A stretch of DNA of 64,000 nt, taken from positions 11,520 to 75,519 of the IMG/VR virus record IMGVR_UViG_2700988902_000001. One strand, 5' to 3'. A program made the position numbers and the translations under genes. This DNA is from Angelvirus px29 (taxonomy: Duplodnaviria > Heunggongvirae > Uroviricota > Caudoviricetes > Straboviridae). Below, piece after piece: positions 847-61,831 of this stretch. The notes below the pieces were generated by a model that saw only the letters and a program-made list of their open reading frames with translations, was not told the DNA's origin and did no database searches. Numbering within the stretch: position 1 is the first letter of the stretch; each line of letters begins with the position of its first letter.

Positions 847-951
847 TTTACAGTTTTGCCTCTATTATCAGTTTTAGTTTCTATTTCATAATCTCCATAA
901 AGTAGTCATCAACATAGGGCTATTATCTCATAGCCCTACATCATTATAAAC

Positions 952-3760: not shown

Positions 3761-3842
3761 AACATCCATAATATACCTCTCACAAGTTGAAAGTCTATTA
3801 TAGATGCGCTCTCGATGTTAGTCAAGAGCGCAGAACGTTTTA

Positions 3843-5837: not shown

Positions 5838-5856
5838 TGGGGAGGTCAACCCTCCC
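5838..5856 (-). other. Intercistronic stable hairpin between gp45 and gp44
   Basis: GGGGAGG-tcaac-CCTCCCC perfect 7-bp GC-rich stem directly after the gp45 stop. Likely a partial terminator or mRNA-stability element, as in the T4 45-44 junction. Confidence 0.4.
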
Positions 5857-5864
5857 CGAACTCA

Positions 5865-10555: not shown

Positions 10556-10617
10556 ATTGTTTCCTTTGTTGAATGATAAAGCGATCATACACACTTCGAA
10601 ACTGAATGTAAACAAGT

Positions 10618-10730
10618 TTGTGCGCAGCACTTCGCGTTAGCGAGAGAAGATAAAATGTCTTATATATCTTTAATGAGAATCTATCTTCTCTTCTTCTTAG
10701 GTTTCAATGAGTTAGCGGCAAGCCGCAGTG
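10618..10730 (-). ncRNA. Repeated structured intergenic element, copy A (possible small RNA or regulatory RNA/DNA structure)
   Basis: Contains the 10-11 bp stem GAGAGAAGATA/TATCTTCTCTC with a ~30 nt loop holding TATATA, then TTAGCGGCAAGCCGCAGTG..GCACA. Closing helix TTGTGC...GCACAA. Shares this architecture with copy B at ~27345-27485. Confidence 0.4.
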
Positions 10731-10744
10731 TAAGCACAATAGAT

Positions 10745-10769
10745 ACAAAAAAGCCACCCGAAGGTGGCT
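10745..10769 (-). terminator. Rho-independent terminator with UUCG tetraloop
   Basis: Minus-strand RNA GCCACC-UUCG-GGUGGC followed by U6. Confidence 0.75.
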
Positions 10770-10788
10770 AATTTATTAAGCTAATTCA

Positions 10789-10804
10789 GGGAGCCGAAGC
10801 TCCC
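10789..10804. terminator. UUCG/CGAA tetraloop hairpin, possibly bidirectional
   Basis: GGGAGC-CGAA-GCUCCC followed by TTTATTT on the plus strand. Sits immediately 3' of the 134-aa gene on the minus strand. Confidence 0.4.
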
Positions 10805-10809
10805 TTTAT

Positions 10810-13686: not shown

Positions 13687-13762
13687 TTATTCACCTCTCG
13701 TTTAATGTATGCATATTCTTGCATACTATTCAGTGTTCGTCAACAACAAAAAAGGTTCTGAC

Positions 13763-14305
13763 TTACGCCAGAACCTTGTTCCAATACTTGTATCCCATCT
13801 TTCGTGCGGTCTTATACGACTCAACAGCACTTAGCGGTTGCTTATGCAAACGTTTCGCACTCTTGACGACACCGGCACTACCATGAGAATATATATAGAT
13901 CAGTCCGACCCAAGAAGGAACTTCATCTGGCTTGACCAGTCCTTCGGGCACAGCATACCAGAAATAATTCGACATATGACCCGCTTCTAAAGCTTCCCGC
14001 TTCGACTTGCGCACCATTCTGTGAGTCCGGTATAGTGTAGGCTTCTCTAATTTTTCTGAGATTCGAACGTGTTTCTTTGCATCCACTCTGAAATCAGATC
14101 GACTCACTTTGATTTCTATTTCATCACATAACCCACTAGGACGCAAGCAAAATAAATCTGCCTCGTTGTCATATTGAGTATAGCAGTTCGGTACGATTAT
14201 ATCATACCTAAGTTGAAATTCGCGACTTCTGGCAATCGCTGCCTGTACGTCTTTTTCAGTCAAGACAACCTCCTTCAAACTTTTCGCTAAAAGTTTTGTA
14301 TCCAC
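13763..14305 (-). CDS. Hypothetical protein, possible PD-(D/E)xK nuclease fold
   Basis: 180 aa. D..(n)..DEIEIK arrangement resembles a PD-(D/E)xK core. Weak. Confidence 0.45.
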   Translation of the reverse strand: MDTKLLAKSLKEVVLTEKDVQAAIARSREFQLRYDIIVPNCYTQYDNEADLFCLRPSGLCDEIEIKVSRSDFRVDAKKHVRISEKLEKPTLYRTHRMVRKSKREALEAGHMSNYFWYAVPEGLVKPDEVPSWVGLIYIYSHGSAGVVKSAKRLHKQPLSAVESYKTARKMGYKYWNKVLA

Positions 14306-15680: not shown

Positions 15681-15711
15681 GATTATTTTTACTCCAAACT
15701 TGAAATGTTAA

Positions 15712-15727
15712 AGGGCCCGAAGGCCCT
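15712..15727 (-). other. UUCG-tetraloop hairpin between nrdD and nrdG
   Basis: GGGCC-UUCG-GGCCC directly after the nrdD stop, with a partial U-tract. Confidence 0.5.
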
Positions 15728-15729
15728 TA

Positions 15730-18355: not shown

Positions 18356-18389
18356 AGAGCCATCTTATCATGATGGCTCTTTGTGTCAA
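18356..18389 (-). promoter_or_regulatory. Sigma70-like early promoter with the -10 region inside an inverted repeat
   Basis: Minus strand TTGACA-N16-TAAGAT. IR AGAGCCAT(c ttatcatg)ATGGCTCT brackets the -10. Confidence 0.55.
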
Positions 18390-18852: not shown

Positions 18853-18880
18853 AACAAAAAAAATCGCCCGAAGGCGATTT
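18853..18880 (-). terminator. Rho-independent terminator after nrdB
   Basis: Minus RNA AUCGCC-UUCG-GGCGAU followed by U8. Confidence 0.8.
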
Positions 18881-18882
18881 TC

Positions 18883-23870: not shown

Positions 23871-24024
23871 TATCCATTACCATAGCGGTAGATCGTTCGG
23901 TTTTGTCTTTGCTCTTGAGCATAGCGTTAATCTTTGATCTGATTTCAAATGCTTCTTCTAGTGTCATGATATTATCCTCTAAAACAATAAAGCCAGTCTA
24001 TAGAAGACTGGCCGTTATGTCAAA

Positions 24025-27286: not shown

Positions 27287-27344
27287 GATTATCTCCTCAG
27301 TTGAATACCAGTAGTATAGACGTTTCCGATATGATGTCAACTAA

Positions 27345-27485
27345 AAAATGTCGCGCCAGCGACTGCGGAGCTAACTCATTGTAACCTAATGAGAAGAGAA
27401 GATAGATCTTCATTAAAGGTATATAAGGAACTTTATCTTCTCTTCTTTTAACATTTAGCGGCAAAGCCGCAGTGCTACGCACATT
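27345..27485 (-). ncRNA. Repeated structured intergenic element, copy B
   Basis: 13-bp stem GAGAAGAGAAGATA/TATCTTCTCTTCT with a loop holding TATATA, then TTAGCGGCAAAGCCGCAGTG..GCACA. Closing helix AAATGT...ACATTT; GACTGCGG pairs with CCGCAGTG. Confidence 0.4.
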
Positions 27486-27943: not shown

Positions 27944-27961
27944 TTATTTCTCCAATGAAAA

Positions 27962-27977
27962 AGGGCCCGAAGGCCCT
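27962..27977. terminator. Bidirectional UUCG/CGAA-tetraloop terminator
   Basis: AGGGCC-CGAA-GGCCCU flanked by T-runs on both strands. Confidence 0.6.
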
Positions 27978-27983
27978 TTGTTT

Positions 27984-30098: not shown

Positions 30099-30152
30099 AA
30101 CAATCTCCTTTTAAGATGGGAGCATTATTACATGCTCCCGGATTTTCGTCAA

Positions 30153-31070: not shown

Positions 31071-31109
31071 GATGTTTTCCTCAGTTGTGTATCTCGTTTC
31101 GATGTAGCT

Positions 31110-31137
31110 ATATTAACAGAAACCGGATTCTGTGCAA
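31110..31137 (-). promoter_or_regulatory. Sigma70-like early promoter + conserved leader
   Basis: Minus strand AAAGTCC-TTGCAC-N16-TAATAT-AGCTACATCGAAACGAG..GAGGAAAACATC-ATG. Confidence 0.6.
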
Positions 31138-31155
31138 GGACTTTTCCGGATAAAA

Positions 31156-31181
31156 TAAAAAAAAACCACCCGAAGGTGGTT
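31156..31181 (-). terminator. Rho-independent terminator
   Basis: ACCACC-UUCG-GGUGGU followed by U9. Confidence 0.8.
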
Positions 31182-31477
31182 TAGACTTTCTTTGTAGCCA
31201 TTTTCAGCAAGTGCCTGAGTTGTGCGCTATCAATATTCGTTTTGATTTGTTCTGCCAAATCAGCTGGGTTTAAATCTGGCAGTGCATCGGCATACGCTTG
31301 ATAAACATCATCGGCACTGTCAAACCCACGATATCGCTTGATTCGATTCTTGGTTATTGACCGCATCAAGGACGATTCGAATTGATCTCGATAGATTCCA
31401 GATTTTACCACCATTCGATCAATAAAAGCGGCGATATGATAGAGAACATACAACAAGACAAATTGAACGTATTTCAT
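31181..31477 (-). CDS. Hypothetical protein
   Basis: 98 aa with hydrophobic N-terminus. Confidence 0.4.
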   Translation of the reverse strand: MKYVQFVLLYVLYHIAAFIDRMVVKSGIYRDQFESSLMRSITKNRIKRYRGFDSADDVYQAYADALPDLNPADLAEQIKTNIDSAQLRHLLKMATKKV

Positions 31478-32467: not shown

Positions 32468-32811
32468 TAAACAATCCTTTTATATTCTCCCATAACATCT
32501 TGATAATTTTCGACGTTAAAAGCTGGGAGAGAGCAGCTTAGATTAGAATCACAAAAGTGATTCACCAGTTGATCGATAACAGCATCATTAAGACGGAAGT
32601 TATCGGCTTCGTAAGTTTCCCAGGCATCACGTATCATTTGTTCGGTGACTGAGAAACAGAAATTGTTAACACCATACACTCTGATTTCGATTTCTTTGTT
32701 ATCAAACAAAGCAATCAGATTTTGAACATTCGGGCTAGTAACCATGTTTGCGCGAGTTGCATTGTAGATACCACGAGCATTGATTTTAGCTTTTACAGTA
32801 ACAAAGTGCAT
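32467..32811 (-). CDS. Hypothetical protein
   Basis: 114 aa. Promoter with AGAGCCAT/ATGGCTCT IR upstream. Confidence 0.45.
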   Translation of the reverse strand: MHFVTVKAKINARGIYNATRANMVTSPNVQNLIALFDNKEIEIRVYGVNNFCFSVTEQMIRDAWETYEADNFRLNDAVIDQLVNHFCDSNLSCSLPAFNVENYQDVMGEYKRIV

Positions 32812-32824
32812 AATGTATTCCTCA

Positions 32825-32859
32825 TTCGTTATTTGATAGAGCCATTATTGCATGGCTCT
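32825..32859 (-). promoter_or_regulatory. Early promoter with -10 inside an 8-bp-stem/6-nt-loop inverted repeat
   Basis: TTGACT-N17-AATAAT. IR AGAGCCAT-GCAATA-ATGGCTCT. Confidence 0.55.
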
Positions 32860-32879
32860 GTGCGTTAGTCAACAACTTT

Positions 32880-33167
32880 TTATTCGGCTTTACAAATCAT
32901 TGTGAGTTGCATAACCTTTTCAGAATCACCAGCACCAGACAACCAAGCGGTGTGATCCCATTGCTCAGTGATAGAAGCATTGGTGAACATCTTAGAACGA
33001 GACAGGTCGCGCTCGATTGCTTGCAGTGTGCCAACGTAGTCGGAAGTAACAACAATCATGTTATTGCCTTCACATTTACCATCGAAGTTAACGATGATTT
33101 GCACATTACGAACAGAGTATTTGCGAGTTGCGAACAGTGCTTTGAATTCGGCGGCTACGTTTTTCAT
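32880..33167 (-). CDS. Hypothetical protein
   Basis: 95 aa. Confidence 0.45.
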   Translation of the reverse strand: MKNVAAEFKALFATRKYSVRNVQIIVNFDGKCEGNNMIVVTSDYVGTLQAIERDLSRSKMFTNASITEQWDHTAWLSGAGDSEKVMQLTMICKAE

Positions 33168-33196
33168 GATGTATTCCTCAGTTGTCTTGATTTGAT

Positions 33197-33231
33197 AGAG
33201 ACATTATCGCATGTCTCTTGGCGTTCGTCAA
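33197..33231 (-). promoter_or_regulatory. Early promoter with -10 inside an inverted repeat
   Basis: TTGACG-N17-GATAAT. IR AGAGACAT-GCGATA-ATGTCTCT (centre covaries relative to 32825). Confidence 0.55.
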
Positions 33232-33254
33232 CAACTTTCAAAAAACTTTTTCAA

Positions 33255-34198: not shown

Positions 34199-34201
34199 GA
34201 T

Positions 34202-34236
34202 ATGGCTCATTATACAGTAACGAGCCATACCGTCAA
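34202..34236 (-). promoter_or_regulatory. Early promoter with a perfect TATAAT in the loop of an inverted repeat
   Basis: IR ATGGCTC(..TATAAT..)GAGCCAT. The arms are in everted order relative to the 32825 class. Confidence 0.55.
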
Positions 34237-36143: not shown

Positions 36144-36232
36144 ATATTTTCCTCTGTTCGTGTGTTTGACGTCTTGCGTCTTGATGTAGGTATAATATCA
36201 AACCGGTACCAAGACGCAAGCTCTTTTTTCAC

Positions 36233-36910: not shown

Positions 36911-37522
36911 CTATATTAACAGAACAAAAATCAGATTGCAAGCACCAAAAACGAAAAAACCACCCGAAGGTGGTTTTATTTTTACCAAGATAACATCAGT
37001 CAGACTTTCGCCCATAATGCTCTCTGCTTCTTCAATCCAATCGGACGTATCCGGTGAATCATAGAATTGTTCAACGCTTTCGAAAATAGCTTGCTTTTGT
37101 CCCATTTCGGTACGTTTCTTGGATTGAAATCCAGCAGTTCCCTTTGGGTACACAGTAGCAATTTCGATCTGTCTGTTCTTCACACGACCAGCAACGCTAA
37201 TATCCATTGACTTCGAATGAAACATGAACTGACCATTTCGAATCTTTTCATCTTCGACATAATGCGCAATCTTACGATAAAACGCTTTCCAGTCTTCTGC
37301 GGATACATCATTGCGACGTTGTGCGGCGCGAGCCTGTGCATGAATAGAACTCATGAAATCATAAACACCAACTTTCATTTTGGTATTCAGTTTAGATTTC
37401 TTTGATAGTTCAAACTCCTGCTCTTTTGTCAGCTCGACAACTTGATTTTTACTTTTGTATACTTGCTTTGGTTCTGGAGCTTCTTTCACACTCTCAGCAA
37501 GAAAATTACTTAATGTCTTCAC
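36911..37522 (-). CDS. Hypothetical protein
   Basis: 203 aa track ORF. The N-terminal limit is uncertain: it overlaps a terminator hairpin, so the true start may be internal. Confidence 0.45.
   Translation of the reverse strand: MKTLSNFLAESVKEAPEPKQVYKSKNQVVELTKEQEFELSKKSKLNTKMKVGVYDFMSSIHAQARAAQRRNDVSAEDWKAFYRKIAHYVEDEKIRNGQFMFHSKSMDISVAGRVKNRQIEIATVYPKGTAGFQSKKRTEMGQKQAIFESVEQFYDSPDTSDWIEEAESIMGESLTDVILVKIKPPSGGFFVFGACNLIFVLLI
36913..36940 (-). promoter_or_regulatory. Sigma70-like early promoter + conserved leader
   Basis: TTGCAA-N16-TAATAT-AGCTCTATCGAAACGAGGAGAT-ATG. Confidence 0.6.
36958..36975. terminator. Bidirectional UUCG/CGAA-tetraloop terminator
   Basis: AACCACC-CGAA-GGUGGUU with T-runs on both sides. 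Confidence 0.7.
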
Positions 37523-38389: not shown

Positions 38390-38446
38390 GATATATTCCT
38401 CTTGATAAGATAGGTCCTATTCTACATGAACAGGACCTGATGTCAA

Positions 38447-42799: not shown

Positions 42800-42860
42800 T
42801 AAATTCCTCCAATAAAAAGCGCGTGACTGTAATTTACCACAATGTCACGCGCTTGTAAAC

Positions 42861-48736: not shown

Positions 48737-49324
48737 TTATTTCCCCAGATAAAAATCAATTGCCTTGTGTGGATCAACGAAGATCTTAACAAGCAGATCG
48801 GAAACATCACACTGACCACCGCCATCAACTTTAGTAAAGGTGTGTCGAGTCTCGGTATTATCGCAATACCAGGTCTTTCCGTCAATCTCTTTTGTTTCTC
48901 GATGATTATGACTATGCACTTTATGATTTCTGATTTCAATAGGCATCAGACGAATTTCGTTCTTAATAAACACCACATATTTGATCTCAATCATGTTTGT
49001 CATGCCAAGCATACGGCATTCGATCTGAGTCAAATCCATATTGTTGATGCGATTCACATATGCAGTAGCTTCATGAACAGTGGTAAACACACGATTGACC
49101 GTGTATGCGTCGTGATGCAGATCGTCATTAATGATGTTGTAATCATTATAATCAATCTCTTTGAATTGACCACTACCAACAATTTGAATAACAGCTTTGT
49201 TGTCATTGATACTAACAACTTTACCGGTAAACATCAATGCGGTAACTTTATTATCGGTCTTGCGAACAATCACAGCGGACAAGTTATTATCGTATTTGAT
49301 TTGATTTTTGGATGAAACTAACAT
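48737..49324 (-). CDS. Hypothetical protein
   Basis: 195 aa. Confidence 0.45.
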   Translation of the reverse strand: MLVSSKNQIKYDNNLSAVIVRKTDNKVTALMFTGKVVSINDNKAVIQIVGSGQFKEIDYNDYNIINDDLHHDAYTVNRVFTTVHEATAYVNRINNMDLTQIECRMLGMTNMIEIKYVVFIKNEIRLMPIEIRNHKVHSHNHRETKEIDGKTWYCDNTETRHTFTKVDGGGQCDVSDLLVKIFVDPHKAIDFYLGK

Positions 49325-50796: not shown

Positions 50797-50820
50797 GGTG
50801 TATTCCTCTTGTCTTGATAT

Positions 50821-50855
50821 GGTTCATTATACGCTAATGAACCATGGCGTCAATC
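50821..50855 (-). promoter_or_regulatory. Early promoter with TATAAT flanked by a 10-bp inverted repeat
   Basis: TTGACG-N16-TATAAT. IR ATGGTTCATT(a gcgtat a)AATGAACCAT, a covariant of the ATGGCTC/GAGCCAT class. Confidence 0.55.
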
Positions 50856-51906: not shown

Positions 51907-52043
51907 AATATTTTACTCAGTTGAGTTGATTCAGTAAACTAGACAGTGCTTCGGCATATGCGAGTGCCAATCCTAAAAGGATTACAACAACAATCTTACC
52001 GAATAGTTGATCTGACATAATGATTCCTCGTTTCGATGTAGCT

Positions 52044-52072
52044 ATATTAACAGAACCAATTAGGTACACAAG
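52044..52072 (-). promoter_or_regulatory. Sigma70-like early promoter + conserved leader
   Basis: AAAGTCC-TTGTGT-N17-TAATAT-AGCTACATCGAAACGAGGAATC-ATG. The 30-nt leader block is identical to the one at 31090. Confidence 0.55.
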
Positions 52073-52127
52073 GACTTTAGGTGATTTTTTAACCAATTAT
52101 TTTTCGAGACATTAAAAAACCCGCCGA

Positions 52128-52146
52128 AGCGGGTTTAGTCTTTCTT
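52128..52146 (-). terminator. Rho-independent terminator
   Basis: ACCCGC-UUCG-GCGGGU followed by U6. Confidence 0.75.
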
Positions 52147-52809: not shown

Positions 52810-52874
52810 GATTTATTCCTCAGTTGATTAAGTGCGACCATTATAGATCGCACTGTTTTGGACTACAAGCTATT

Positions 52875-53297: not shown

Positions 53298-53390
53298 GAT
53301 GTAATCCTCAGAGTTTTCGTTGAGACTGTTTCGTCTTGATGTGACTATATTATCATAGCCACGCCGACGGTCAACTACTTTTTTCGAAAA

Positions 53391-55078: not shown

Positions 55079-55106
55079 TGTTCACATTTGATGTCAACAA
55101 AAAAGC
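55079..55106 (-). promoter_or_regulatory. Sigma70-like early promoter + conserved leader
   Basis: TTGACA-N16-TAATAT-AGCTACATCGAAACGAAC.. Confidence 0.6.
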
Positions 55107-55112
55107 CACCCG

Positions 55113-55130
55113 AAGGTGGCTTTTATTTTT
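55113..55130 (-). terminator. Rho-independent terminator after nadV
   Basis: GCCACC-UUCG-GGUGGC followed by U6. Same hairpin sequence as at 10752 and 61809. Confidence 0.8.
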
Positions 55131-61377: not shown

Positions 61378-61412
61378 TTTCAATGAGGCCATTATTACAT
61401 GGCCTCTTAGTC
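61378..61412 (-). promoter_or_regulatory. Early promoter with -10 inside an inverted repeat
   Basis: TTGACA-N16-TAATAA. IR GAGGCCAT-GTAATA-ATGGCCTC. Confidence 0.55.
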
Positions 61413-61421
61413 GTGTCAAAC

Positions 61422-61724: not shown

Positions 61725-61808
61725 GATGTTTTCCTCAGTTGTGTATTTCGTTTCGATGTGTGTATAGTAACACAACGGCAGATCGACGCAAGGACTTTTA
61801 CACAAAAA

Positions 61809-61826
61809 AGCCACCCGAAGGTGGCT
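61809..61826 (-). terminator. Rho-independent terminator
   Basis: GCCACC-UUCG-GGUGGC followed by U6. Confidence 0.8.
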
Positions 61827-61831
61827 TTAGT

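Follow-up and report, generated by a model that had tools for sequence, protein, structure and literature searches.

Hairpins built around the -10 element of early promoters in Aeromonas phage PX29 are promoter-early stem-loops selected for complementarity of their arms

The promoter-early stem-loops (PeSLs) that Arbiol et al. (2010) described in phages RB49 and phi1 carry a stem-loop lying most often between the -35 and -10 elements or overlapping the -10; one of the RB49 stem-loops (intergenic region 211/210) lowered lacZ read-through to the same degree as rrnB T1, mini-circles are reported to arise when neighbouring PeSLs recombine, and of the Aeh1 group that study makes mention only, as having “PeSL-like sequences” near gene 43 (PMC2839356). 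Comeau et al. (2014) found PeSLs in the phage pairs T4/PST and KVP40/nt-1 (PMC4122927), and Nolan et al. (2006), the source of the Aeh1 early-promoter logo, make no mention of a repeat. Here we analyse a stretch of 64,000 nucleotides from the Aeromonas phage PX29 (hereafter the window), starting from the short gap between its genes gp062 and gp061, where an early promoter carries its -10 element within a hairpin-capable inverted repeat. This promoter is one of a family in the window, and its members are PeSLs, of the subclass that overlaps the -10. An earlier note on this DNA had thought of a possible new promoter class; the elements match instead PeSLs, which have been known since 2010 and 2014 (PMC2839356, PMC4122927).

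Position x of the window is position x + 11519 of the PX29 record (GU396103 / NC_023688), and the sequence of Aeromonas phage PX29, a 222-kb T4-like myovirus, matches the segment 31500-35500 at 100% identity. The annotated genes of the window all lie on the minus strand, and include uvsX, gene 43 and the nrd genes, followed by a long series of small hypothetical genes; all promoter and hairpin features are given in the minus-strand reading. Promoters were predicted blind to the repeats, allowing at most one mismatch in the -35, fixing A-11 and T-7, and requiring a Shine-Dalgarno (SD) sequence and a start codon downstream. Under strict criteria the window holds 28 promoter matches on the minus strand versus four on the plus strand.

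At least 13 sigma70-type early promoters of the window possess an inverted repeat with one arm in the spacer and the other in the discriminator, so placed that the -10 hexamer falls within the loop or on its edge. Two designs recur: class A combines an 8-bp stem with a 6-nt loop, while class B has a stem of 10-14 bp, often with one G.U, and a 5-nt loop that takes up the TA of the -10, the remaining hexamer lying in the stem; both place A-11 in the loop. In the focal promoter the stem pairs -22..-15 with -8..-1 around the loop -14..-9, and its 3′ arm ends one base short of the predicted +1 A. Two of the eight class A pairs (A-16:T-7 and T-15:A-8) are dictated by the extended -10 consensus and the other six are free. 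The hairpin promoters rank among the top matches of an independent promoter scan, those of class A having TG before the -10. Hairpin position varies beyond the two main registers: a few hairpins lie around the -35 (3805-3832, 5839-5857), and one (36173-36220) encloses the entire promoter, its 5′ arm overlapping the -35-like CTTGCG and its 3′ arm falling at about +3..+13.

Each hairpin is part of a cassette of about 55-90 nt which comprises, in order, the stop codon of the upstream gene, an A/T-rich tract, a strong sigma70-type promoter, a conserved leader, a Shine-Dalgarno sequence and ATG. The A/T-rich tract 5′ of the -35 holds or adjoins the upstream stop codon (examples are TAAAAAGTTGTTGACT, TGATTGACG and TAGTTGACA), and a GAGG/GGAG motif stands 5-9 nt 5′ of the ATG in all cassettes. 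The genes downstream of hairpin promoters are nearly all hypothetical (gp036, 044, 057, 061, 062, 065, 070, 078, 102, 109 and 128). The discriminator follows a family pattern, ATG-N-N-C-N-C then ATC, even in hairpin-free promoters, and the spacer appears to be selected to complement it; the resulting 5′ arm is G-rich and the 3′ arm C-rich. Roughly half of the promoters that are otherwise similar lack a hairpin, so the repeat is an optional addition and no part of promoter recognition. As the 3′ end of the hairpin falls at -1/+1, the promoter's own transcript never includes the hairpin; RNA arriving from upstream alone does. The first transcribed bases, ATC(A/G)A(A/G)AC(G/A)A (for instance at 32837-32812), are conserved across unrelated genes in PX29 and in coliphage RB49 alike, a conservation which suggests that the leader itself may be functional in initiation, processing or translation.

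The earlier note had seen a -10 hexamer within a hairpin-capable inverted repeat at nine or more promoters, and this is borne out by the 13 or more sites given above. Every string that it quoted is present on the minus strand, although some coordinates were off by a few bases (61385-61406, for example, had been given as 61378); the sites at 34201-34229, 50819-50845 and 36173-36220 agree with its description. Its list of sites was real but missed those at 30118-30139, 23992-24012, 52831-52854, 13707-13726 and 915-938. The site at 18356, put forward as a second copy of the focal sequence, turns out to be a related hairpin of different dimensions (9-bp stem, 7-nt loop), and TGTGT-TACTAT-ACACA (61764) has been dropped from the family, since its TGTGT/ACACA arms (61759-61774) make 5 bp, which is chance level. 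Also dropped was the intragenic, promoter-like GGTATT-gcgat-AATACC (-35 at 48885), for which there was no supporting context.

Hairpins of this kind are far more frequent than chance would provide. Counting perfect stems of at least 7 bp with loops of 3-16 nt, a list drawn up without bias towards promoters, the minus strand of the window holds 107 perfect hairpins, versus 50 +/- 7 in shuffles, and a search for the focal type of pattern is expected from shuffles to give no matches. For a larger sample we joined the PX29 window with the syntenic regions of Aeh1, Ah1 and phiAS5 (110 promoters), and as a control made chimeras by fusing upstream and downstream halves taken from different promoters. 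The -10 is bridged by a perfect stem of 7 bp or more in 39 of the 110 promoters (35%) versus 2.0% of chimeras. Among 57 unique promoters picked solely by TG at -15/-14 the class A pairing fraction is 0.627, compared with 0.527 +/- 0.016 when their 3′ halves are permuted (z = 6.2; the maximum of 2000 permutations was 0.592) and with 0.32-0.46 in slid registers.

The upstream regions of orthologous genes in other phages tell the same story. Starting from 13 PX29 hairpin promoters, an automatic criterion scored a hairpin in 22 of 23 such regions; discounting two cases that do not span the -10, a hairpin is retained at about 20 of the 23 orthologous promoters, in most cases with other arms. Upstream of gp057 the arms are GGGAGCAT/ATGCTCCC in PX29, TATCTGGGACCA/TGGTCCCAGATA in Aeh1 and GAGGGCAT/ATGCCCTC in phiAS5; upstream of gp078 (38412-38438 in PX29) they are AGGTCCT, TAGGCTC and TAATGCCC, those of Aeh1 and phiAS5 differing from that of PX29. 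The hairpin at 33197 has AGAGACAT in PX29 versus AGAGCCAT in Ah1, a double compensatory change from C:G to A:T. Because orthologous promoters keep their hairpins with very different arms, the repeats are selected for complementarity and not for a fixed operator sequence. The chimera, permutation and orthologue comparisons thus agree with the earlier proposal that the arms vary but stay complementary under selection on structure, and the absence of the repeats from related phages, which would have told against it, is not what we see.

An alignment of 13 class A sites from five phages, two of the sites being from RB49, was selected for pairing, so that it is 100% paired by construction and its arm diversity alone is informative; six of its eight pairs are altered on both sides, in 24 cells. 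The pairs that covary are the six free ones, with two to four pair types each. A covariance model of the sort that the earlier note had called for, built from these sites, recovers them and further minus-strand matches in every phage, and it finds a third RB49 PeSL outside the training set (L007 31688, E = 0.0008) together with weaker ones. A search of Rfam gave no family match anywhere in the window.

We propose, as an account which we believe is probably correct though far from assured, that these are PeSL-type cassettes in which the hairpin acts on read-through RNA coming from upstream. The hairpin is written into positions left free by the promoter, with the spacer serving as 5′ arm, the semi-conserved discriminator as 3′ arm and the -10 in or beside the loop. 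Once transcribed from upstream, it would attenuate or end that transcription and/or protect the 3′ end of the upstream message, so that each small early gene would be driven mainly by its own promoter. We judge that the hairpin lies within the promoter because the intergenic gap, in which the upstream stop often abuts the -35, leaves no room for it elsewhere. Its flexible position is to be expected if presence anywhere between the stop codon and +1 suffices. The repeated cassette, as seen at one gene, doubles as a recombination patch. Among the mechanisms that the earlier note had offered, a read-through RNA hairpin coupling termination to re-initiation fits best, while a cruciform or pre-melted -10 fares poorly, for reasons considered below.

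The recombination side of this proposal can be followed at gp062. The promoters with their -35 at 32872 and 33231 are direct repeats flanking gp062 in PX29, and Ah1 is arranged alike; in Aeh1 and phiAS5 the locus holds one PeSL and gp062 is missing. On this one copy the two alignments from PX29 share 70-74 nt, an overlap that reads as the signature of exchange between the repeats. Between PX29 and Ah1, identity is 95-100% over a patch of about 500 bp (32747-33242, which covers gp062 with its two flanking PeSLs and the beginning of gp061) versus 57-93% in adjacent sequence, and the homology breaks off a short way upstream of the distal PeSL. This suggests, from the alignments, a recent exchange of the patch between two different Aeromonas phage genera. 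In this one case, gp062, repeated cassettes have served as homology patches for gene gain or loss. Window-wide, 15 of 116 homology endpoints fall no more than 45 nt from a hairpin versus 1.8% expected by length, about a 7-fold excess by length that is not seen relative to other intergenic gaps.

As to which strand folds, the sense RNAs give -11 to -22 kcal/mol (z from -2.8 to -6.5) and the sense-strand DNAs -3.7 to -11.7 kcal/mol, antisense folds being weaker wherever a G.T is present; at 53341 the sense RNA reaches -11.1 kcal/mol and the antisense DNA -1.6 kcal/mol, no better than shuffles. Where hairpins with at least eight Watson-Crick pairs have one or two interruptions of the stem, G.T makes up 8 of 16 interruptions versus 12% in chimeras, and A.C 4 of 16 versus 21%. 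This asymmetry, the weakness of the antisense folds and the fact that hairpins vary in position favour folding of the sense strand, most simply in read-through RNA from upstream; we regard this as suggestive and not decisive.

Several observations weigh against the proposal. The contrast of G.T with A.C is weak when taken alone (8 versus 4, p = 0.04 against a chimera baseline of 461:800, several cases being mutual orthologues), and a looser test, in which stems were extended under each wobble rule, gave 22:22, swamped by chance matches. A U-tract follows the hairpin at none of the promoters, where tails such as ATCAAAT, ATCTTAA and ATATCAAG are found; a sense-strand scan for intrinsic terminators called none of the promoter hairpins, though it did call the canonical terminators of the phage, which exist as separate elements with UUCG or GAAA loops and T-tracts (31163-31182 and 36956-36977 are examples). 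Since there is no U-tract and separate canonical terminators exist, termination proper by the promoter hairpins is doubtful. Nor are hairpins significantly rarer at promoters that already stand behind a canonical terminator (4 of 16, versus 35 of 94 elsewhere; p = 0.41), and homology endpoints fall at 6 of 10 hairpin promoters versus 12 of 33 other intergenic gaps (p = 0.28). As a general explanation, a terminator acting on the antisense strand was rejected: the scan flags 30117-30140 alone on the plus strand, and the other sites have no adjacent T-tract.

The canonical terminators of the window form a uniform family of their own, having a 5′ arm that is A-rich then C-rich, a TTCG tetraloop, a G-rich 3′ arm and a T-tract, with an arm polarity opposite to that of the promoter hairpins. 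Besides the two just named, members are found at 61807-61828, 55101-55124, 52117-52136, 27960-27979, 18860-18881, 15711-15728 and 10752-10769.

The inverted repeat might instead be mainly a DNA recombination signal, its hairpin or cruciform, formed during replication or recombination, being cut or bound by structure-specific phage enzymes such as endonuclease VII or the gp46/47 palindrome nuclease, with mobile cassettes and only secondary effects on transcription. The gp062 indel, bounded by two PeSLs and lying in a patch near-identical in Ah1, speaks for this, and genes 49, 46 and 47 are encoded within the window. We nevertheless hold it to be unlikely: T4-type recombination needs no hairpin where 45-70 nt of direct-repeat homology are already present, hairpin promoters show no excess of breakpoints over other gaps, the G.T pairs weaken a structure on the other strand, and the arms have no common sequence for an enzyme to recognise. 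A combined idea is that the hairpin, besides being an RNA signal, would on single-stranded or supercoiled DNA be a structure-specific site, either where cassettes are excised and integrated or where the -10 is pre-melted for sigma70, and that PeSLs would be structured mobile promoter cassettes resembling integron attC sites; our evidence weakens this idea, and we consider it quite unlikely. A role in initiation at the DNA level, with a supercoil-driven cruciform or a non-template hairpin offering an unpaired A-11 to sigma70, or altering open-complex lifetime, and thereby tuning promoter firing, seems to us improbable. It draws on the placing of A-11 in the loop in both classes and on the stability of the sense-strand DNA hairpins (-7 to -12 kcal/mol); short hairpins can extrude in vivo, as at the early promoters of phage N4. 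Yet A-11 is paired at 23992 and in the orthologous Aeh1/phiAS5 promoter, other hairpins lie around the -35 or the whole promoter so that the geometry is not fixed, and many RB49 stem-loops sit entirely between -35 and -10. Closely similar promoters work without the repeat, arms of 8 bp around 6-nt loops do not readily form cruciforms, and each G.T pair becomes an A.C mismatch on the template strand. It is because the hairpin position varies, many promoters are hairpin-free and G.T pairs occur that a DNA cruciform or pre-melted -10 is a weak explanation.

Two further readings were considered. The repeats could be functionless, kept perfect by template-switch correction of quasi-palindromes or by gene conversion among cassettes. 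The cassettes are indeed repeated and clearly exchange sequence, and arm families recur, GAGCCAT/ATGGCTC being found in both orientations (32838 and 34202). Gene conversion, however, copies arms and would not make new complementary ones, whereas hairpins persist with unrelated arms in about 20 of the 23 orthologous promoters, next to proteins that are 50-90% identical, and the same design is present in the distant coliphage RB49; such a mutational process is highly improbable as the explanation. Alternatively the palindrome could be an operator at which a dimeric repressor of phage or host shuts off the early promoters, and its centring on the -10 is where a repressor would block RNA polymerase. 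The six free pairs with two to four pair types each, with no conserved half-site at a fixed spacing, are not what an operator requires, nor are variable arm length and register, loops that are not palindromic, or an arm polarity (G-rich 5′, C-rich 3′) for which a symmetric operator has no need. The operator reading is close to refuted and we give it almost no credence.

These results extend the known range of PeSL cassettes to the Aeromonas phages of the Aeh1/PX29 group, and go beyond the original papers in two respects: selection for pairing has been quantified, with compensatory changes between orthologous promoters, and the 3′ arm has been recognised as the promoter discriminator, with the hairpin ending at the transcription start. 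The group offers a clean test system for deciding whether the PeSL hairpin serves attenuation, RNA protection or recombination. The motif also pinpoints the true start codons of genes whose starts the PX29 record gives wrongly, and marks likely gene-cassette boundaries.

Table 1. Coordinates and structure of the focal cassette, gp062 and the hairpin promoters of the window; folding energies are in kcal/mol.
Feature	Position	Strand	Remarks
Focal PeSL cassette, the entire gap from gp062 stop to gp061 ATG	32812..32879	-	Best covariance-model match, 53.8 bits
Focal promoter: -35 TTGACT, 17-nt spacer, -10 as TG-C-AATAAT	-35 at 32872-32867; -10 at 32849-32844	-	
Focal predicted +1 (A of conserved ATC), SD GAGG, ATG	+1 at ~32837; ATG at 32811	-	
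Focal class A hairpin AGAGCCAT-GCAATA-ATGGCTCT	32838..32859	-	RNA fold -12.9, z = -4.9
Second PeSL cassette, upstream of gp062; repeats the focal cassette in direct orientation	33168..33254	-	
Class A hairpin AGAGACAT-GCGATA-ATGTCTCT of the second cassette	33197..33218	-	
gp062, small gene flanked by the two PeSL repeats	32880..33167	-	
Class A hairpin GAGGCCAT-GTAATA-ATGGCCTC; promoter -35 at 61419	61385..61406	-	RNA fold -15.3
Class A hairpin GTGGCTAT-GATAAT-ATAGTCAC, one G.T pair	53341..53362	-	Aeh1 orthologue has a perfect 12-bp stem
Hairpin AGTGCGA(TC)-tataat-(GG)TCGCACT, TATAAT in loop	52831..52854	-	-14.3, z = -6.3
Class B hairpin ATGGTTCATTA-gcgta-TAATGAACCAT, 11-bp stem, 5-nt loop; last four -10 bases in stem	50819..50845	-	
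Class B hairpin AGGTCCT(GTTC)-atgta-(GAAT)AGGACCT, 7 perfect pairs, 11 with one G.U	38412..38438	-	
11-bp arms CTTGCGTCTTG / CAAGACGCAAG around whole promoter	36173..36220	-	-22.5
Class B hairpin GGTATGGCTCGTTA-ctgta-TAATGAGCCATATC; promoter -35 at 34236	34199..34231	-	-19.5
Class A hairpin GGGAGCAT-GTAATA-ATGCTCCC	30118..30139	-	
Hairpin GCCAGTCT-tctat-AGACTGGC; -10 TAGACT mostly in 3′ arm	23992..24012	-	
Hairpin AGAGCCATC-ATGATAA-GATGGCTCT; promoter -35 at 18389	18356..18380	-	
Hairpin GTATGCA-agaata-TGCATAC; promoter -35 at 13743	13707..13726	-	
Class-A-like hairpin TAGGGCTAT-gagata-ATAGCCCTA upstream of gene 43; poor -35; conserved in Ah1	915..938	-	44.9 bits

Two of the sites collected in Table 1 have further features. 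A canonical terminator (13752-13777) stands directly upstream of the hairpin promoter at 13707-13726, and the hairpin at 34199-34231, which has eight perfect pairs at 34201-34229 and 14 counting G.U, lies within the annotated 5′ end of gp065. The annotated starts of gp036, gp065 and gp128 (18371, 34240 and 61392) fall inside or upstream of the promoter or hairpin. Because of the pattern of promoter, leader and Shine-Dalgarno sequence, the true starts should lie further downstream; these genes are probably annotated too long, with ATGs at about 18329, 34180 and 61350.

Other elements of the window deserve mention alongside the hairpin promoters. A second promoter class, which has no hairpin, is found at 31101-31143 and at 52035-52077 (minus strand), and similar sites occur in the gaps that end at 55128, 44798 and 23796. 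It reads AAGTCCTTG(C/T)(A/G), then about 20 nt, then TAATAT-AGCTAC-ATCGAAAC, with a nearly invariant AGCTAC discriminator and a CCTTGC box in place of TTGACA, and its usual place is directly behind a canonical terminator; these promoters may belong to another temporal class, such as the middle type. Two long intergenic regions, 27287-27484 and 10589-10809 (minus strand), have in common an element of about 90 nt, CACTGCGGCTT(T)GCCGCT ... AAGAAGAGAAGATA, about 30 nt, TATCTTCTCT, which would form a small hairpin and a long inverted repeat; each copy has a sigma70-like promoter downstream of it, and the element has no Rfam match. The minus strand at 42817-42854 has an 11-bp hairpin, AAGCGCGTGAC...GTCACGCGCTT, with TTTTATT behind it and a promoter-like site (TTTACA-N17-TAAATT) within it, and such an element could, judging by its layout, be both terminator and promoter.

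Among known systems, the hairpin promoters of N4 resemble those of PX29 in having key promoter bases in a hairpin loop. N4 promoters for the virion RNA polymerase have 5-7 bp stems, 3-nt loops and no -35/-10 consensus, and require that polymerase, while T4-like phages use the host polymerase. The PX29 promoters, with loops of 5-13 nt, a near-consensus -35 and a TG-extended -10, are by contrast strong sigma70 promoters, and none of the annotated genes of the window, as far as annotation goes, is a virion RNA polymerase; the distinction from N4 that the earlier note had drawn is therefore upheld, by the larger loops and the sigma70 elements. Intrinsic terminators, the UUCG-loop ones of PX29 included, likewise place a stable hairpin just behind a stop codon, but they possess a U-tract, and those of PX29 have an A/C-rich 5′ arm and a G/T-rich 3′ arm, reversed with respect to the promoter hairpins. 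REP-type hairpins and the intergenic stabiliser hairpins of T4 also lack a U-tract and stand behind a coding region, where, after cleavage in the A/U-rich leader, a hairpin could block 3′ exonucleases; unlike the PX29 hairpins they are not built into a promoter.

The PeSLs are closer. Those of T4/PST and KVP40/nt-1 are, similarly, promoter-terminator composites in hyperplastic regions, tied to indels between close relatives, although in PST the stem-loop is just upstream of the promoter and not around the -10, and the consensus is TTTACW / TTGYVH. Closest are those of RB49/phi1, for which alone terminator activity and mini-circles have been demonstrated. Many RB49 stem-loops lie wholly between -35 and -10, and the 211/210 stem-loop, which we place at L007 23308, has no U-tract either. 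RB49 stems are mostly GGGG...CCCC, in contrast to the mixed arms of PX29 (AGAGCC, GTGGCT, ATGGTTCATT), some of which reach 11-14 bp with G.U. In other respects the two share a whole design: a sigma70-consensus promoter, an A/T-rich tract with the upstream stop, a stem-loop often over the -10, a conserved leader, SD and ATG, and many copies among small genes of unknown function, where they flank genes present or absent between relatives. Several RB49 intergenic sites have the class A 8-bp stem and 6-nt loop in a register identical to that of PX29, as in TTGACA-TAACAGA-GGGTGTAT-atcata-ATACACCC-ATACCGAAACG and GGGGATAT-agcata-ATATCCCC-ATCGAAACG, and the upstream tract AAAGTTGTTGAC and the leader ATCGAAAC are common to both phages.

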